A stretch of 64,000 nucleotides of DNA from Escherichia coli phage NG_S8, in sequence record LC788711.1; one strand, given 5' to 3'. Shown here piece by piece: positions 1,020 through 13,103 of this stretch. A program made the translations under genes and the position numbers. The notes below the pieces were generated by a model. It made no database searches. It was given only the letters and a program-made list of their open reading frames with translations, and was not told the origin of the DNA. Every line of letters starts with the position of its first letter. Within the stretch, counting starts at the first letter, position 1.

Positions 1020-1056
1020 AGCCAGGTTGCTAGTCGACCTGGCTTTTATTTTATTT
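1020..1056 (+). terminator. rho-independent terminator after nrdD
   Basis: Stem AGCCAGGT/ACCTGGCT then TTTTATTTTATTT. Confidence 0.7.
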
Positions 1057-1402: not shown

Positions 1403-1606
1403 ATGAAAAACGTAAAACATCTTAAATATCGCTTAATTTACAACGGACGTATGGAAACAGAAGATCTAGCTCAGCTAGCGATCAATTCAGATGAAGTTAC
1501 AGTTCGTGCTTTGTCCATCGAGAAGCTGCGTGCTTCTTATGAAAATCGTATTATGGAATTGGAGGAAAAACTTTATGGACTTCTTGAATCAGAATCTAAA
1601 AAGTAA
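1403..1606 (+). CDS. hypothetical protein (67 aa)
   Basis: ORF with RBS AAGGAA; compact spacing. Confidence 0.45.
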   Translation: MKNVKHLKYRLIYNGRMETEDLAQLAINSDEVTVRALSIEKLRASYENRIMELEEKLYGLLESESKK

Positions 1607-1769
1607 TTTAGAAAATATGCTTATGGAGCAGTGGAATGCTGGGTATAATGCTGGAGTAGCTACCTGTATTGCTGGTTTGGATATGCTTATTAAGCAAGAG
1701 AAGGTTCGCCCAGAAGAAGCAATTCTGCTCCAAAATATCATCGAAGGATTCAAGCAAGGAATCATATAA
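1575..1769 (+). CDS. hypothetical protein (64 aa)
   Basis: ATG 1575 preceded by GGAGG (1561-1565); overlaps end of previous ORF; stop overlaps next start. Confidence 0.4.
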   Translation: MDFLNQNLKSNLENMLMEQWNAGYNAGVATCIAGLDMLIKQEKVRPEEAILLQNIIEGFKQGII

Positions 1770-2620
1770 TGCGTAGACTAATCGTTGTTAGTGGTGCAGG
1801 TTTGAGTGTAGATAGTGGTGTTCGTGCTTTCCGTACTGATACTGCTAGTGGGAAATCCTTGTGGGATGAGTACGATCTAGAGGAAGTATGTAGCTTGCCT
1901 AACTTTGAAGCTGGCTTCCGTCGCTTCTGTGGTGAAGATGATCCTAACTACTTCAGTGCTCGTTTCCCTGGCATTGATAAAGATGGTAACGATCTGTATC
2001 TCAAGACTCATGAGTTCTACAACATGCGTCGTCAGGAATTACAGACTGTTGAGCCTAACATTGCCCATCTGCGAATTGCAGAATGGTTCCAGCGTTATGG
2101 TGCGGATAGCGTGAAGAACTTCACTACTAACGTTGATGACCTTCTGGAACGTGCTGGTATCCCTCGTGATGAAATCATTCACGCTCACGGGTACTTGAAA
2201 GAGGTGATCTATCGTCAGGGTCGCAACCAAATCATCGAAGATGTTGGGTATACTGCGATTGCCCCTGAGGATTACGAATGGGTAAAACCAAACGTAACAT
2301 TCTTTGGTGAGACGGCTCCGTGGTATATGGGTCAGATTAACCTGTTTGATACACTTACTAGCAATGATATGGTTATTGTAGTAGGTTGTAGCAACCAAGT
2401 AATCGACTTCAACTGGGAGCTATTTCCTGCTGTATGTCGTGGAACTAAGATGATGGTTGTTAACCCACAAGTTCGTTATGACGAACAGCTTGAGTATGAG
2501 AAACGTGGTGTTACTGTATGGCGTGCTGGAGCTGCCGAAGTTTTTGGTAATAAACACTTTATTGATCAAGTTGAAGCTTTTATGGAGGGAAATATTTATG
2601 TCCCAGAAAAGCATGTGTGA
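1769..2620 (+). CDS. SIR2-family (sirtuin-like) NAD-binding protein, no zinc ribbon
   Basis: Motifs VVSGAGLSVDSGVRAFR, TTNVDDLLERAG, HAHGY, VVGCSNQV in sirtuin order; no CxxC pairs. Confidence 0.7.
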   Translation: MRRLIVVSGAGLSVDSGVRAFRTDTASGKSLWDEYDLEEVCSLPNFEAGFRRFCGEDDPNYFSARFPGIDKDGNDLYLKTHEFYNMRRQELQTVEPNIAHLRIAEWFQRYGADSVKNFTTNVDDLLERAGIPRDEIIHAHGYLKEVIYRQGRNQIIEDVGYTAIAPEDYEWVKPNVTFFGETAPWYMGQINLFDTLTSNDMVIVVGCSNQVIDFNWELFPAVCRGTKMMVVNPQVRYDEQLEYEKRGVTVWRAGAAEVFGNKHFIDQVEAFMEGNIYVPEKHV

Positions 2621-2780
2621 TCTTTTAGTATGGCCAGACGGTAGTTGGTGCTACCGTTTCGAATTTGCTACTGATGACTTCTCATGGAAGAGTGATGATT
2701 TCTGCGTTATCTATGAGGATACAGCAGAATGGAAAGAGTTCCTTATTAAGGAGGGAGAATATGGTGAAGAAGATTTTTAA
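2598..2780 (+). CDS. hypothetical small acidic protein (60 aa)
   Basis: ATG 2598 after GGAGGG; in-frame part of ORF 2457-2780. Confidence 0.45.
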   Translation: MSQKSMCDLLVWPDGSWCYRFEFATDDFSWKSDDFCVIYEDTAEWKEFLIKEGEYGEEDF

Positions 2781-2946
2781 GGGTATCTGGAAAGGTCTAG
2801 TATGGTTTGTCAACCTAATCGGTATGATTACCATTTATTCTCTGTTCCTATCTGTTATGTGGGGTAAAGGTGAATTGAAGGTTCCAGTTCCTTTTACTGA
2901 TGAAGTTAAAGTCTGGACGTGGGATGCTACTGGTGGAAATAAGTAA
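2761..2946 (+). CDS. hypothetical small membrane protein (61 aa)
   Basis: ATG 2761 after AAGGAGGGAG; hydrophobic segment GLVWFVNLIGMITIYSLFLSVMW. Confidence 0.45.
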   Translation: MVKKIFKGIWKGLVWFVNLIGMITIYSLFLSVMWGKGELKVPVPFTDEVKVWTWDATGGNK

Positions 2947-3440
2947 TACTCCTGTGATTTTCCTGGATATTGATGGGGTGCTCAATTCGAGCATCTCTCA
3001 CCATCATGCTCCAGATAGTGAGAAGCTATTCTTTGGGGGTGATTGGGTTTACAAGCCATTACTCCAGGCTTTTCAGAACTTTCTTGAGCCATCCCCAATA
3101 ATGATTGTTGGGGTATCTTCATGGTTTTCTGTACGAAATGAAATGGAGAACGTTCAGATTATGACCGGACTCGGTTTGATCGATCGTTTTCTTGGTACAA
3201 CAGATTTTACTGGAGGTGGTTTATCTCGGGGGTAATTCTGTTTTACGTTTTGTCGAAAAATATAAGCTCAAGCATTGGTGTGTCCTAGATGATGCTGGTG
3301 CTATGATGTATCAATTTCCTACTGTTATTGTAAACGGCAGGACTGGAATAAACCTTCAAGATTTAAACGCTATCAGCTATATGCTGGAGTTTAGTCCAGA
3401 TCTTGAAATGTGTAAGGCTCTTCAGAAACTTAAGGTATAA
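2924..3440 (+). pseudogene. HAD-superfamily 5'-nucleotidase-like gene (NT5C-like), apparently frameshifted at G-run 3226-3230
   Basis: N-terminal VIFLDIDGVLN (HAD motif I) in frame 2900-3235; downstream HWCVLDDAG (DD motif) continues in frame 3192-3440. Confidence 0.4.
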
Positions 3441-3442
3441 GC

Positions 3443-3871
3443 ATGTTCAATAATATTTTCATGAAAGAGGTAAATCCTATGCTTCTCAACTTCTGGCGCT
3501 CTCTCCCTAATGGTATGTATAATGAAACCATCAATCTCCTTAAGATTTGGTGTGAGAATAACGATATCTTCCTGTCTTTTAAAGGCCCGCTAGAGGAAGC
3601 TCCGTGTATTGGAGTTAGTGTGGATTTAGGCGAGGGAGTAGAAGAGATTGTAGACTGGAAAGAACTTGATGAAATGGGTCTGGTTTTTGCCTTGAACCAT
3701 AAGCTGTTTATGCCTGCAAATCACCGTCTTATTGTAAATTATCGCACTGGTGAAGCTCCTGCTTTCCAGGTAAATGAACGTGAGGGCTGGTCATACTCGC
3801 CCGGGGAAGTAAATGAGGGGATTCAGAAACTTCGTCGTTTCGGGTATATGATCCCAGGTTTAACTGCTTAA
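3443..3871 (+). CDS. hypothetical protein (142 aa), paralog of next gene
   Basis: ORF; C-terminal half alignable by eye with 3881-4276 product (DW.EL..MGL..ALN...F.P......TGE.P..QV......Y.....E......GY..PGL). Confidence 0.6.
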   Translation: MFNNIFMKEVNPMLLNFWRSLPNGMYNETINLLKIWCENNDIFLSFKGPLEEAPCIGVSVDLGEGVEEIVDWKELDEMGLVFALNHKLFMPANHRLIVNYRTGEAPAFQVNEREGWSYSPGEVNEGIQKLRRFGYMIPGLTA

Positions 3872-3880
3872 GGAGGCAGA

Positions 3881-4276
3881 ATGGAACAAGTATTTTGGCG
3901 TCAGATAGATCCTAGTTTGGTAGAGCGTGCTGAGGGGCTCCTTGCACGTTGGTTGGGGGTTGACAAGGTTAGTGTAACATTTCCGTTTACTTCTGTAACA
4001 GACCCTAGTGTAGGAGTCTTTGTGGATGAAGATGAAGATGATGGTTGGGAAGCTGACTGGAATGAATTGTCCAGCATGGGCTTGATTGTTGCCCTCAACT
4101 TCTCTATATTCCATCCACGTGGCTTAGCCATTACACGTGACCCCGAAACTGGTGAATCCCCTTATCTTTTGCAAGTAGAAGATGATATTTGGGAGTACAC
4201 CGAAGATATTCTCGAAGAAGCTAAAGGTCACTTAAATCGCATTGGGATCTATGTCCCAGGCCTAAATGATGATTGA
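3881..4276 (+). CDS. hypothetical acidic protein (131 aa), paralog of previous gene
   Basis: RBS AAGGAGG; acidic stretch DEDEDDGWEADWNE; shared C-terminal motif with upstream ORF. Confidence 0.65.
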   Translation: MEQVFWRQIDPSLVERAEGLLARWLGVDKVSVTFPFTSVTDPSVGVFVDEDEDDGWEADWNELSSMGLIVALNFSIFHPRGLAITRDPETGESPYLLQVEDDIWEYTEDILEEAKGHLNRIGIYVPGLNDD

Positions 4277-4367
4277 TTTTCATTAGCCCAATCCTGATTA
4301 CCGAGTCATTTTGGCTCGGTTTTCTCTGTGCTCAAAGACACTGATAGCACCTTCGGAAAAATTTTAC

Positions 4368-10196: not shown

Positions 10197-10397
10197 ATGG
10201 CAATGACAATAACACTTCCAAAGATTCAAGCAAAACTTAATTTGCTCTCCATAGCAAGAATCAATTACCAGGATAGTATCGGCACTCCAAACCAGAAAGC
10301 GTACAAAGATGCGTGGTTGAAAGAAGCTGCTGATTTAGCTGGTATGGCTGCTCAGTATAATAAAGAACTCAAAATGGAAATCGCAGACGATGAATAA
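10197..10397 (+). CDS. hypothetical protein (66 aa)
   Basis: ATG 10197 after GAGAGGA; downstream of promoter. Confidence 0.5.
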   Translation: MAMTITLPKIQAKLNLLSIARINYQDSIGTPNQKAYKDAWLKEAADLAGMAAQYNKELKMEIADDE

Positions 10398-11361
10398 TGT
10401 AAAAGACTTTATCAAACGTTGTCAAGAAGCGTACTACCAGGGAATGAGTCTTATTTCCGATGAAGAATATGATCGTCTGATTAAAAGATTCCCACTAGAG
10501 GAAGAAATCGGACCGAAAGGTGATATCCCTCATTTGTATCGTATGTATTCTTTACAGAAAGTCTATTACGATCGTGGTGATAAAGCTCCATTTAACCCAT
10601 TAGGTCAGGTTGAAACTGATAAGTTAGATGGTTGTGCGATTTCTCTATTATATATTAATGGTGAATTTGTTCAAGCGTTAACTCGTGGTAACGGTATTCT
10701 AGGGAATGATGTAACGCATAATGTTAAAATGCTGAACATTCCCAAAACTATTTCCCAAAAAGTACCAACTCAAATCACTGGTGAAGTTCTCATTACTAAA
10801 GAAGTAGAGAACAAACGTAACTACGCTTCGGGTGCTATTAACCTGAAAGATAGTGATGATTTCATGCAACGTATTGGTGAAGGTGGTTTAATCTTCGTTG
10901 CATATGGTATCCAGTGTTCAGCGGAAACAGTCGGTATTACAGAAGCCTATTTAAAAGATATGCTTTGGCTAGAGAATGAGAACTTCTTGACAGTTATTAA
11001 TGTTCGTTCCTTCTTTAAATGGATTCCGACAGATGGTAAAGTTGTTCGCATTAACGACAACAATAAATTCTTCCGTGAAGGTTGGACTAATAAATTTCCT
11101 CGTGGTGCATTTGCTATTAAAGAGGATGAAGAAGGCGAAATTACCACACTTGTTAAAGTTGAATGGCAAGTAGGGGCTTCTGGTAAAGTAACTCCAGTTG
11201 GTTATTTCGAACCGGTGATTATTGATGATGCCACAATCGTTAAAGCAACTCTTAATAACGTTGATTATATTAACGCTCTCGATTTAGAGATCGGTTGCCA
11301 GATTCGAGTGATTCGTGCTGGTGGTGTAATCCCTTGTATAGTAGAGCGAGTATACGACTAA
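10390..11361 (+). CDS. NAD-dependent DNA ligase, N-terminal adenylation part (323 aa)
   Basis: KxDG adenylation motif (KLDGCAISLLY) and OB-fold region; ends at stop 11359-11361. Confidence 0.8.
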   Translation: MNNVKDFIKRCQEAYYQGMSLISDEEYDRLIKRFPLEEEIGPKGDIPHLYRMYSLQKVYYDRGDKAPFNPLGQVETDKLDGCAISLLYINGEFVQALTRGNGILGNDVTHNVKMLNIPKTISQKVPTQITGEVLITKEVENKRNYASGAINLKDSDDFMQRIGEGGLIFVAYGIQCSAETVGITEAYLKDMLWLENENFLTVINVRSFFKWIPTDGKVVRINDNNKFFREGWTNKFPRGAFAIKEDEEGEITTLVKVEWQVGASGKVTPVGYFEPVIIDDATIVKATLNNVDYINALDLEIGCQIRVIRAGGVIPCIVERVYD

Positions 11362-11533: not shown

Positions 11534-11563
11534 ATTTATATAAATTGATAAGGAAGAAATTTG

Positions 11564-12343
11564 ATGAAAATCGAAATTCCAACACAATGTCCCTCTTGTG
11601 GTTCTAAGCTAGATCTTGTCAACGGGCAATTATTCTGTAGGAATAAGTCCAACTGTCCAGCGCAATCAAGTAAGTTAATCGAGAACTTCTGCACAAAAAT
11701 GAAGTTAAAGGGCTTTGGCCCGAAAACTATTGAGAAGCTGGAGCTGACTAAGATCTCAGAACTGTTTTACCTGACCGAAGAAGATTTGGTCGGAGCTGTG
11801 GGTAGCAAGGTTGCCGCTAAATTGATTAGCGAGTTAAATACTAAGGTTCGCGGAGACATTAACTTTGGTTCAGTTCTCGGTTCTTTAGGAATTCCTCTTA
11901 TTGGAGAGGTTGCAGCAAAGAAACTGTCCCAAAATTGCACTAGCTTCCACGATGTGAAGGCTGACGGCAAGGCTGGAGAAAATTACAAAACCTGGCTAAA
12001 TTCCCCACAAGGCAAGGATGTTATTGAATTACCGTGGAAATTCTCAACGGGTATTCGAGGTGCTAAAGCGGATATCATCATTACAGATGATTTAGTTGCC
12101 CAGCCAAATGGAATCACGGTCTGTATTACCGGATCTTTGCAAGATTTTGCAAATCGAACGGATGCAACAAACTATTTAGAAAGTCTAGGATATACGGTTA
12201 AGAAGTCCGTTACCAAAGACGTCAAATACCTAATCTGTGAGGATGAATCAAAACGTTCTTCCTCATCTTATAAGAAAGCCGAAACGAATGGGATAGAAAT
12301 CCTGTCGATTAAAGAACTATTGGAGAAAAATAATAATGTCTAA
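11564..12343 (+). CDS. NAD-dependent DNA ligase, C-terminal part (Zn finger, HhH, BRCT-like)
   Basis: Four-Cys zinc finger CPSCGSKLDLVNGQLFCRNKSNCPAQ; separate RBS AAGGAAG and ATG. Confidence 0.75.
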   Translation: MKIEIPTQCPSCGSKLDLVNGQLFCRNKSNCPAQSSKLIENFCTKMKLKGFGPKTIEKLELTKISELFYLTEEDLVGAVGSKVAAKLISELNTKVRGDINFGSVLGSLGIPLIGEVAAKKLSQNCTSFHDVKADGKAGENYKTWLNSPQGKDVIELPWKFSTGIRGAKADIIITDDLVAQPNGITVCITGSLQDFANRTDATNYLESLGYTVKKSVTKDVKYLICEDESKRSSSSYKKAETNGIEILSIKELLEKNNNV

Positions 12344-13103
12344 ACTGAACTGGAACGTAGAAGGTGTAACCGAGTCTCTGAAAGCAAAAGCCACTGCTCT
12401 GGGTGTTGCTGTAATCTCTCAAGAACAAGTAGCTGCTATCGCTGCTGAACTGGCTACCGAGACTGGTAAAGACGTTACCGCTCGCTCTGTTGGCTCTAAG
12501 CTGCGTAAAGAAGGTTTCGAAGTACAGAAAGCAAACGAAGTACAGAAATCCCCGTGGACTCCTGAGCAGGAAGCTGAACTGGTTGATTTCCTGAACGCTC
12601 ATGCTGGTCAGTATACTTACGCTGAAATCGCTGCTGCTGTAGCTGGTGGTCAGTTCGGTGCTAAGCAGGTACAAGGTAAGATCCTGAGTCTGGAAATGAC
12701 TGCTTCTGTTAAGCCAACCGAAAAAGCTGCTGCTGTTCGTTCCTTTACTCCTGACGAAGAAACTGATTTCGTTAATCAGGTTGTTGCTGGTGCTACTATT
12801 GAAGCTATCGCTGCTCACTTCGGTCGCAATATTAAGCAGATCCGTGGTAAAGCTCTGAGTCTGCTTCGTGAAGGTCGTATCGCTGCTATGCCGGTACAGG
12901 AAACTTCAAGTGCTAAAACTCGTGAAGATCTGTTAGAAGGTCTGGATCTGGCTAACATGACTGTTGCTGAGATCGCTGAGAAAACTGGTAAGTCTGAGCG
13001 CGGTGTTAAATCTATGCTGTCTCGTCGTGGTCTGGTTGCTAAGGACTATGATGGTGCCGCTAAGCGTGCTAAACTGGATGCAAAAGCTGCGGCTGCTGAA
13101 TAA
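12336..13103 (+). CDS. putative DNA-binding protein with four internal HTH-like repeats (D5-like by position and size)
   Basis: Four ~55-aa repeats (e.g. EQVAAIAAELATETGKDVTARSVGSKLRKEG); strong codon bias; terminator follows. Confidence 0.75.
   Translation: MSKLNWNVEGVTESLKAKATALGVAVISQEQVAAIAAELATETGKDVTARSVGSKLRKEGFEVQKANEVQKSPWTPEQEAELVDFLNAHAGQYTYAEIAAAVAGGQFGAKQVQGKILSLEMTASVKPTEKAAAVRSFTPDEETDFVNQVVAGATIEAIAAHFGRNIKQIRGKALSLLREGRIAAMPVQETSSAKTREDLLEGLDLANMTVAEIAEKTGKSERGVKSMLSRRGLVAKDYDGAAKRAKLDAKAAAAE

Follow-up and report, generated by a model that had tools for sequence, protein, structure and literature searches.

Escherichia coli phage NG_S8 encodes a SIR2-family (sirtuin) protein between nrdD and the replication genes, and we analysed this gene within a stretch of 64,000 nucleotides of sequence record LC788711.1 (the window). 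The open reading frame (ORF) starts with ATG, occupies positions 1769..2620, stop codon included, and specifies 283 amino acids (aa); like the sequence features and neighbouring genes placed below, it lies on the + strand. The protein matches the Pfam SIR2 family PF02146 (E=1.3e-21, 77.7 bits, cut-off 24) and, end to end, PHROG 2162, 'Sir2 (NAD-dependent deacetylase)' (E=2.5e-107), and its AlphaFold2 (AF2) model has CobB, Sir2Af1 and SIRT5 as its nearest structures. Judged by these profile matches, it is a member of the SIR2 family, far beyond chance resemblance.

Over its first 6 kb, the window shares 99.8% identity with Salmonella phage SH9 (Demerecviridae, Epseptimavirus); this 6-kb segment has matches in 554 phage records, in 209 of them across most of its length. 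A first-pass annotation of the sequence had proposed a phage gene of the SIR2 family in an early region. The SH9 match and the placement beside nrdD and the replication genes bear out both the phage origin and the location, and the search with a SIR2 hidden Markov model (HMM) that it named as a check returned PF02146 far above its cut-off. Among 120 listed homologues, which sit on contigs of ~110-150 kb at 53-99% identity, the named sources are all phages or phage-like, except two labelled Salmonella or E. coli. We found 59 further viral SIR2 loci, and the protein falls within the phage-associated sirtuin clade (Iyer et al. 2022). Longer relatives (297-528 aa, ten of them scanned for fusions) contained only SIR2, one tandem SIR2 and one WG_beta_rep, and were uninformative. 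The gene itself is long annotated, carrying a 'Sir2-like / NAD-dependent deacetylase' label in many T5-like phage records, and has already been analysed in silico; its zinc-less nature and its RNA-repair context are both in the literature.

NAD+-binding and catalytic residues

The clade alignment comprises 58 sequences with 56-86% identity to the window protein. It contains 51 invariant columns, which include every catalytic residue and every residue that binds nicotinamide adenine dinucleotide (NAD+). The four NAD-pocket motifs of sirtuins occur in the order quoted in the first-pass annotation (aa 9-22, 119-130, 138-142 and 204-211). The NAD-binding loop GAGLSVDSGVRAFR (aa 9-22; 1793..1834) aligns to GAGISAESGIRTFR of CobB, and its residues G9, A10, G11, S13, S16, G17, F21 and R22 are invariant. 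The segment TTNVDDLLERAG (aa 119-130; 2123..2158), with the ribose-binding N121 and D123, aligns to CobB TQNIDNLHERAG; T120, N121, V122 and D123 do not vary within the clade. HAHGY (aa 138-142; 2180..2194) contains the catalytic His140 and aligns to CobB IHMHG. H140 and G141 are invariant, and His occupies the H140 column in every full-length sequence among the 150 nearest representatives of 50%-identity clusters, with which we also aligned the protein for the ribbon comparison given below.

The fourth motif, VVGCSNQV (aa 204-211), runs into GCSNQVIDFNW (aa 206-216; 2384..2416), in which the GxS NAD motif is followed by a motif specific to the clade, found where CobB has its 'VYP' peptide-binding turn. 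Here G206, S208, V211, I212 and F214 are invariant, and N213, N215 and W216 nearly so. The substrate-tunnel 'FGE' loop KPNVTFFGE (aa 173-181; 2285..2311) aligns to CobB RPHVVWFGE with K173, P174, F178, F179 and E181 invariant, and N232 is also fixed in the clade. The protein thus has the GAGxS...FR loop, the Asn/Asp pair and the catalytic His of canonical sirtuins. Given 51 invariant columns that include all catalytic and NAD-binding residues, we predict that the enzyme is almost certainly active on NAD+.

Residues of the acyl pocket

Equivalences in the acyl pocket were read from the CobB alignment, and the CobB pocket residues were taken from variant names in PDB titles, in which the positions engineered for acyl selectivity are A76, Y92, I131 and V187. 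The corresponding window/CobB pairs are C41/A76, Y84/Y92, R87/R95, V122/I131 and V176/V187; C41, Y84, R87 and V122 are invariant in the 58-member clade and V176 nearly so. The class III 'YxxR' acyl-pocket motif is represented by Y84-N-M-R87-R88 (2018..2032), which aligns to CobB FYNARRR. Y84, R87 and R88 are clade-invariant, and the Y-R-R pattern is kept in most of the 150 nearest representatives.

Cys41 (1889..1891), also invariant, stands opposite the A of CobB 'EDVATPEGF' in the phmmer alignment, at the A76 position, which we take to be equivalent to Ala86 of SIRT5. A small residue together with Tyr and Arg is the class III signature that allows succinyl- and malonyl-lysine in SIRT5 and CobB, and the window protein has both the YxxR motif and a small residue at the SIRT5 Ala86/CobB A76 position. 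As this combination of small residue, Tyr and Arg is conserved, the pocket looks made for an anionic group. Cys41 itself may be a redox-sensitive or catalytic residue, or merely a small pocket residue.

Predicted fold and structural neighbours

The AF2 model, built on the 58 clade members, has a predicted local distance difference test score (pLDDT) of 89.6 and a predicted template modelling score (pTM) of 0.87. It contains a Rossmann sheet of six strands (3-8, 115-119, 136-138, 200-205, 227-231 and 249-251) and a three-stranded ribbon (141-150, 153-158 and 172-176; pLDDT about 93-96). The protein is therefore predicted to adopt the canonical two-subdomain sirtuin fold, a six-stranded Rossmann sheet with a helical and ribbon-containing small subdomain. 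An insert of 26 residues in the helical small subdomain (aa 51-76; 1919..1996), modelled at a pLDDT of about 86-94, occurs only in the window-type allele; it is absent from the T5-type allele, where BLASTP opens a gap, and from CobB.

When the model was searched against the PDB with Foldseek, the top 50 matches were canonical deacylases only, with complexes of CobB and peptide first. In a structural comparison, the canonical deacylases scored 20.7 (Sir2Af1), 18.4 (PfSir2A), 18.0 (SIRT4), 17.3 (SIRT2), 17.1 (SIRT1) and 17.0 (Hst2), and the ADP-ribosylating SirTM 14.3. Proteins of defence or SIR2_2 type (PsSIR2 13.6, Sir2-HerA 11.8 and 11.2, ThsA 11.5, Avs5 10.2 and 9.3, FAM118B 9.8) ranked well below the deacylases, and defence proteins are not the closest structural neighbours. 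By sequence, the nearest solved proteins are E. coli CobB (1S5P/6RXJ), Sir2Af1/Af2, SIRT5 and Sir2Tm.

In SIR2_2 proteins the whole zinc-binding beta module is absent and the central sheet has seven strands (PMC12700824); the window model, by comparison, is predicted to have the module and six strands. A Pfam scan at E<=1 returned no family besides PF02146, and thus no SIR2_2, and the PADLOC defence library gave no match at E<=1. The protein and its surroundings also lack a fusion or operon partner of defence type (SLOG, HerA, pAgo/APAZ, STAND or TIR): it is a single-domain protein of 283 aa, and its neighbours are small ORFs, HAD_SAK_2 and DUF7415.

Loss of the zinc cysteines

The protein contains only four cysteines (C41, C54, C207 and C223). 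The ribbon segment (aa 141-176; 2189..2296) contains none of them; it is without the four ribbon Cys that hold the structural zinc in canonical sirtuins and has a conserved D(V/I)GY hairpin. Of the 150 nearest representatives, 91 have at least four ribbon Cys (CxxC...CxxC) and 43 have none. The four ribbon columns are 99-100% Cys among the 91 and are occupied by Y148, G151, a gap and P166 in the window protein. The D(I/V)GY hairpin and the KPNV motif are common to Cys-bearing and Cys-less representatives, and some of the 43 without ribbon Cys retain the canonical VYPAA turn. Four cysteines are also kept by the viral relatives at the greatest distance, L065 (608-kb contig) and L066 (279-kb contig). 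On the latter contig (8713..9198 and 11857..12642), a nucleoside 2-deoxyribosyltransferase-like gene comes immediately after the four-cysteine SIR2 relative, with a Thg1 gene (tRNA-His guanylyltransferase family) 3 kb off.

Because close relatives keep the CxxC...CxxC pattern, the loss of the zinc ligands is, judging from the alignment, a late, local and derived change within a canonical-type family, and it provides no evidence of a defence architecture. We looked for a citable zinc-less deacylase in the Sir2La preprint and in a review of bacterial sirtuins and found none there.

These results separate the parts of the first-pass annotation. It had described a SIR2-family protein, encoded by a phage, in which the NAD pocket is intact and the zinc-ligand cysteines are missing, and the PF02146 and PHROG 2162 matches, together with inspection of the motifs and cysteines, agree. 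Its wording 'without zinc ribbon' applies to the Cys pairs, which are gone; the ribbon module itself is retained in the model. It had further equated the zinc-less state with the architecture of NAD-depleting defence SIR2 proteins, and here the retained ribbon, PF02146 as the sole Pfam match, the empty PADLOC search and the canonical deacylases that fill the Foldseek top 50 all point the other way. The structure prediction that was to place the protein between deacetylases and NADases, with its six strands and ribbon, gives it deacylase-like rather than NADase-like neighbours. Its interpretation survives to the extent that a role in deacylation or ADP-ribosyl transfer is a reasonable option; the step to a defence-like NADase fails the HMM, fold and alignment tests and is not supported.

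Gene neighbourhood in the window

The SIR2 gene belongs to a same-strand run consisting of orf93, orf67, a small ORF, SIR2, orf60, a HAD gene and two DUF7415 paralogues. The run is bracketed by terminator-like hairpins, identified from a consensus scan only, that mark the boundaries of a probable transcription unit. The upstream hairpin follows nrdD (1020..1044; 10-bp stem, 6 GC pairs, T-rich tail) and the downstream one follows the second DUF7415 gene (4300..4320; 9-bp stem, 5 GC pairs, T-rich tail).

The small ORF immediately upstream of SIR2 (1575..1769, start approximate, within ORF 1491..1769) matches PHROG 5827 (E=3.9e-32 over residues 32-91) and is unannotated in the SH9 RefSeq record. 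Its stop codon and the SIR2 ATG overlap by one base (TAATG at 1767-1771), which suggests translational coupling of the two. At the other end, the 60-aa orf60 (2598..2780; PHROG 5116, E=4.4e-29), a hypothetical protein in SH9, overlaps the 3' end of SIR2 by 23 nt.

The HAD gene (2924..3439) encodes a HAD_SAK_2 phosphatase ('HAD domain in Swiss Army Knife RNA repair proteins'; PF18143, E=4.7e-18 on the intact SH9 copy). In the window it carries a +1 frameshift in a run of five G near 3227-3231, which splits it into ORFs 2900..3235 and 3192..3440. The window reads CTCGGGGGTAA (GGGGG) where SH9 reads CTCGAGGTAA (GAGG), and the nearest relative, L008, has GGGG; either the extra G is a homopolymer sequencing error or the gene is a real pseudogene. 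RefSeq annotates a 'second Sir2' at this place (window 2924..3439; 5924..6439 in L001). We rejected it as a sirtuin, as it is the HAD_SAK_2 phosphatase, mislabelled via PHROG 18062. That family (92 aa) represents only the C-terminal half of the HAD protein, and the wrong label has spread over many T5-like records.

The two paralogous DUF7415 genes (3443..3871 and 3881..4276; PF24187, E=9.1e-37 and 3.4e-28) lie in the same probable transcription unit. This pair diverges more between T5-like subgroups (64-75%) than most neighbours do.

Allele mosaicism

The SIR2 protein of the window (SH9-type) is only 51-52% identical to that of T5-type phages (L027-L060), whereas the flanking proteins are mostly 85-97% identical between the two (NrdD up to 97%, orf67 85-96%, HAD about 90%, origin-binding protein 90-95%). 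In a neighbour-joining tree of SIR2, calculated without bootstrap, loci with a T5 backbone occupy at least five positions and are mixed with rV5-like and Phapecoctavirus-like loci. This new side observation suggests that, while the gene's genomic position stayed fixed, its alleles were either replaced through horizontal exchange or diverged fast or under strong diversifying pressure. The incongruence of the SIR2 tree further implies that the same type of sirtuin serves both the HAD context and the ligase/kinase context described below.

NAD+ consumption and supply

The window also encodes a NAD-dependent DNA ligase, split over two adjacent ORFs (10390..11361 and 11561..12343) that are both so annotated in SH9, and this gives the phage a second NAD+-consuming function. 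Beyond the window, SH9 has adjacent genes for a NadR-like nicotinamide-nucleotide adenylyltransferase and a PnuC-like transporter (16522..18256 in L007; 81121..82855 in the SH9 record). Experiments with the T5-like phage Bas30 have shown that such a NadR-like/PnuC-like pair ('NARP3') rebuilds NAD+ (PMC13464706). In other phages, a gene for nicotinamide phosphoribosyltransferase (NAMPT) lies directly upstream of SIR2 (6057..7493 in L064) or, in 10 non-T5 loci, within 8 kb of it. The adjacency of NAMPT is a possible link between nicotinamide recycling and the sirtuin reaction.

Discussion

So, what might the phage sirtuin do? From its sequence, we predict a catalytically competent, canonical-fold sirtuin of class III (CobB/SIRT5/Sir2Af1) type that belongs to a clade of enterobacterial phages. 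We tentatively favour an active enzyme that depends on NAD+ and strips lysine of an anionic acyl group, a reading based on homology, since the fold, the pocket and the tunnel residues are those of deacylases. Early in infection, such a sirtuin would bind NAD+ together with a substrate bearing a negatively charged acyl group; by homology, this could be succinyl-, malonyl- or acetyl-lysine on host or phage proteins. An oxygen of the leaving group would attack C1' of the nicotinamide ribose and nicotinamide would be released. His140 would then activate the ribose 2'-OH, and the group would depart as O-acyl-ADP-ribose, which would free the lysine. The NadR-like and PnuC-like genes seen in near-identical SH9 could cover the cost in NAD+. 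The altered peptide-binding turn (VIN/D-F-N-W for VYP) and the cysteine-less ribbon suggest that the macromolecular target is narrower than, or different from, that of host CobB.

Several observations weigh against a deacylase. All seven NCBIfam CobB models score far below their cut-offs (the best, NF001753, reaches 87.7 against 243 bits), so that the protein does not qualify as a CobB orthologue by these models. The 'VxP' turn after GxS is missing: CobB has GTSGHVYPAA, the window protein GCSNQVIDFN, and the clade consensus is VINFNW. To our knowledge, the Pro of this turn is near-universal in deacylases and contacts the backbone of the substrate peptide. The 26-residue insert of the window-type allele speaks against simple CobB-like behaviour, and in three phage architectures the genes around SIR2 suggest RNA-end processing and not protein modification. 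A literature search on members of the clade and on T5-like phage sirtuins found genome announcements, modelling and a comparative-genomics prediction, but no enzymology. Finally, canonical sirtuins reportedly require the zinc module to deacetylate (PMC12700824), and the window protein has lost the ligands of that module.

The gene context is the basis of a published alternative. Iyer, Burroughs, Anantharaman and Aravind (2022) placed most viral sirtuins in a distinct clade, found in three contexts, and predicted that they act in RNA repair in a manner analogous to KptA/Tpt1 (PMC9503650). We regard this as the main rival reading for the window protein, possible although somewhat less likely. 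When an RNA has been cleaved or re-ligated, such as a transfer RNA (tRNA) cut by a host anticodon nuclease, its 2'-phosphate would attack NAD+, nicotinamide would be freed and ADP-ribose 1''-2'' cyclic phosphate would leave; HAD_SAK_2 would prepare RNA ends or process the ADP-ribose product. The prediction fits the exact configuration of the window, as the T5-like Escherichia phage SP15 has the sirtuin together with a 'Swiss-army-knife' HAD (PMC9503650). Our own survey covered the 59 further viral loci and three contigs, with all flanking ORFs clustered, and the SIR2 ORF is intact in 62 of 62 loci. Enzymes of RNA-end processing (HAD_SAK, or kinase, cREC, RNA ligase and phosphoesterase) are a frequent, though not universal, part of its neighbourhood. 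In the window, HAD_SAK_2 lies 300 nt downstream of SIR2, inside the same terminator-bounded unit, and it is present in 29 of 32 loci with a T5 backbone. In Erwinia phage KEY it lies on the opposite side of SIR2, and at L063 it occurs again, 2.4 kb from a SIR2 of only 38% identity. In rV5-like loci, SIR2 directly follows an AAA_33 kinase, and within a few kb there are a cREC_REC protein, a T4-type RNA ligase (RNA_lig_T4_1), a Metallophos phosphoesterase, an ATP-dependent DNA ligase and MazG-like proteins. In the jumbo-phage relative on the 279-kb contig, Thg1 is the neighbour at 3 kb. SIR2 alleles appear to have been swapped between HAD-type and ligase-type backbones, which fits a single shared biochemical role, and T5-like phages have about 23 tRNA genes (counted in SH9). 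A Tpt1-like reaction is chemically plausible and explains why the peptide-binding turn is altered; Y84, R87 and R88, all invariant, could hold a phosphate as well as a carboxylate.

Against an RNA substrate, the support comes from gene context only, and the tunnel residues of acyl-lysine sirtuins are retained. The clade is acidic (median isoelectric point 5.05, net charge about -13), which is weak evidence against free-standing RNA binding. The SH9 genome annotation has no RNA ligase or polynucleotide kinase gene, and the repair pathway would therefore be incomplete in T5-like phages. In 3 of the 32 T5-backbone loci, no HAD gene lies within 8 kb of SIR2, the window has a frameshift in its HAD partner, and loci of Phapecoctavirus type have no RNA-repair neighbours. 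One of the latter, L002, is uninformative, with ten flanking proteins that have no significant Pfam match and Metallophos and Acb2/Tad1-hairpin proteins some kb away. With less confidence still, the clade as a whole may consist not of protein deacylases but of functional analogues of Tpt1/KptA that strip 2'- or other terminal phosphates from RNA in an NAD+-dependent manner. If so, these sirtuins would complete the tRNA-repair pathways by which phages counter host anticodon nucleases, supplying a last step that had been missing. The Tyr/Arg pocket of class III would have been re-purposed for phosphate, the cysteine-less ribbon and the VINFNW turn re-shaped for nucleic acid, and the swapping of SIR2 alleles would reflect an arms race or the modular exchange of a repair cassette.

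Of the other possibilities, an NAD+ glycohydrolase or NAD-centred counter-defence enzyme, which would hydrolyse NAD+ or an NAD-derived immune signal as the first-pass annotation had suggested, appears very improbable. It would agree with the intact NAD pocket and the lost zinc ligands, and defence NADases also keep Asn and His. An Acb2/Tad1-hairpin protein ~4 kb upstream of SIR2 in one Phapecoctavirus locus also fits counter-defence. However, PADLOC has no match and PF02146 is the one Pfam family at E<=1, the predicted ribbon and six-stranded sheet are unlike SIR2_2, and the defence structures rank far lower than the deacylases. The protein also stands alone, 283 aa with no sensor or partner domain. 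Moreover, the phage needs NAD+ for its ligase and near-identical SH9 encodes a pair that rebuilds it, with which a phage enzyme that depletes NAD+ fits badly. A mono-ADP-ribosyltransferase that modifies a host protein or nucleic acid and so hijacks or inactivates it, like SirTM sirtuins or T4 Alt/Mod, is improbable as well. The adjacent or fused Macro domain of SirTM-type systems is absent from the window locus and the scanned neighbours, and Iyer et al. 2022 likewise give no Macro-domain partner for this sirtuin clade (PMC9503650). The structure is closer to deacylases than to SirTM, and neither the catalytic His nor any of the class III pocket residues has been lost. An inactive or decaying remnant with no enzymatic role would be in line with the loss of zinc ligands and the frameshifted HAD gene next door. 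It is scarcely credible given 51 invariant columns across 58 members, with all catalytic and NAD residues among them, an ORF intact in every one of the 62 loci and a confident model.

Thus two readings survive, a lysine deacylase on the grounds of homology and a Tpt1-like enzyme on the grounds of RNA-end enzymes in at least three gene arrangements. The NAD economy, that is the NAMPT neighbours and the NadR/PnuC pair of SH9, has been counted in favour of a deacylase, but both reactions release nicotinamide, so these genes do not discriminate between the two.

The Acb2/Tad1-hairpin protein belongs to a family of anti-CBASS/anti-Thoeris sponges and is encoded at 2940..3215 of L002, from the Phapecoctavirus-type Escherichia phage ECO340P2.

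Sirtuins are widespread among phages, and the T5-like, rV5-like, Phapecoctavirus-like and jumbo types all have them. Much of the conflict between bacteria and phages is fought over host NAD+, and T5-like phages devote genes to its restoration. A phage enzyme that consumes NAD+ might be used to reset host protein acylation, to repair cleaved tRNA or for another end. The value of the present finding is corrective: it removes the idea of a defence-like NADase and leaves a sharp, testable alternative function.

Comparison with known systems

CobB of E. coli and Salmonella (1S5P, 6RXJ) is the best match of the window protein both by sequence and by Foldseek. The two are of similar size and both stand alone, and they share the NAD loop GAG.S..SG.R.FR, the N/D motif (TNVD in the window protein, QNID in CobB), H.HG, the FGE loop and YxxRR. 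They are, however, only ~26-27% identical, and the window protein lacks the four zinc cysteines and the VYP turn, and has the 26-residue insert and an invariant Cys at the A76 position. Human and zebrafish SIRT5, a desuccinylase and demalonylase, and the archaeal Sir2Af1 both have the zinc site and are 19-28% identical to the phage protein. The defence SIR2 effectors (ThsA, DSR1/2, SIR2-HerA, SIR2-APAZ and Avs5; SIR2_2) have in common with it a Rossmann-type NAD core, the catalytic Asn and His, and the absence of zinc.

Among phage-encoded sirtuins, that of phage SP15, the third configuration of Iyer et al. 2022, has the same arrangement as the window and belongs to the same clade. Its function was predicted from context, and the HAD gene is frameshifted in the window; the sections of that article drawn on here do not mention zinc-cysteine loss or allele mosaicism (PMC9503650). 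Skliros et al. 2016, who combined homology modelling with transcript profiling, listed T5 among the phages that encode Sir2/CobB (PMC5107563). The Sir2/CobB proteins of Vibrio phages KVP40, phiSt2 and phiGrn1 are, like the window protein, phage-encoded and CobB-like, and are reported to have kept a finger-like module but no zinc ligand; they retain a proline turn, 'INP', that the T5-like clade has lost (PMC5107563).

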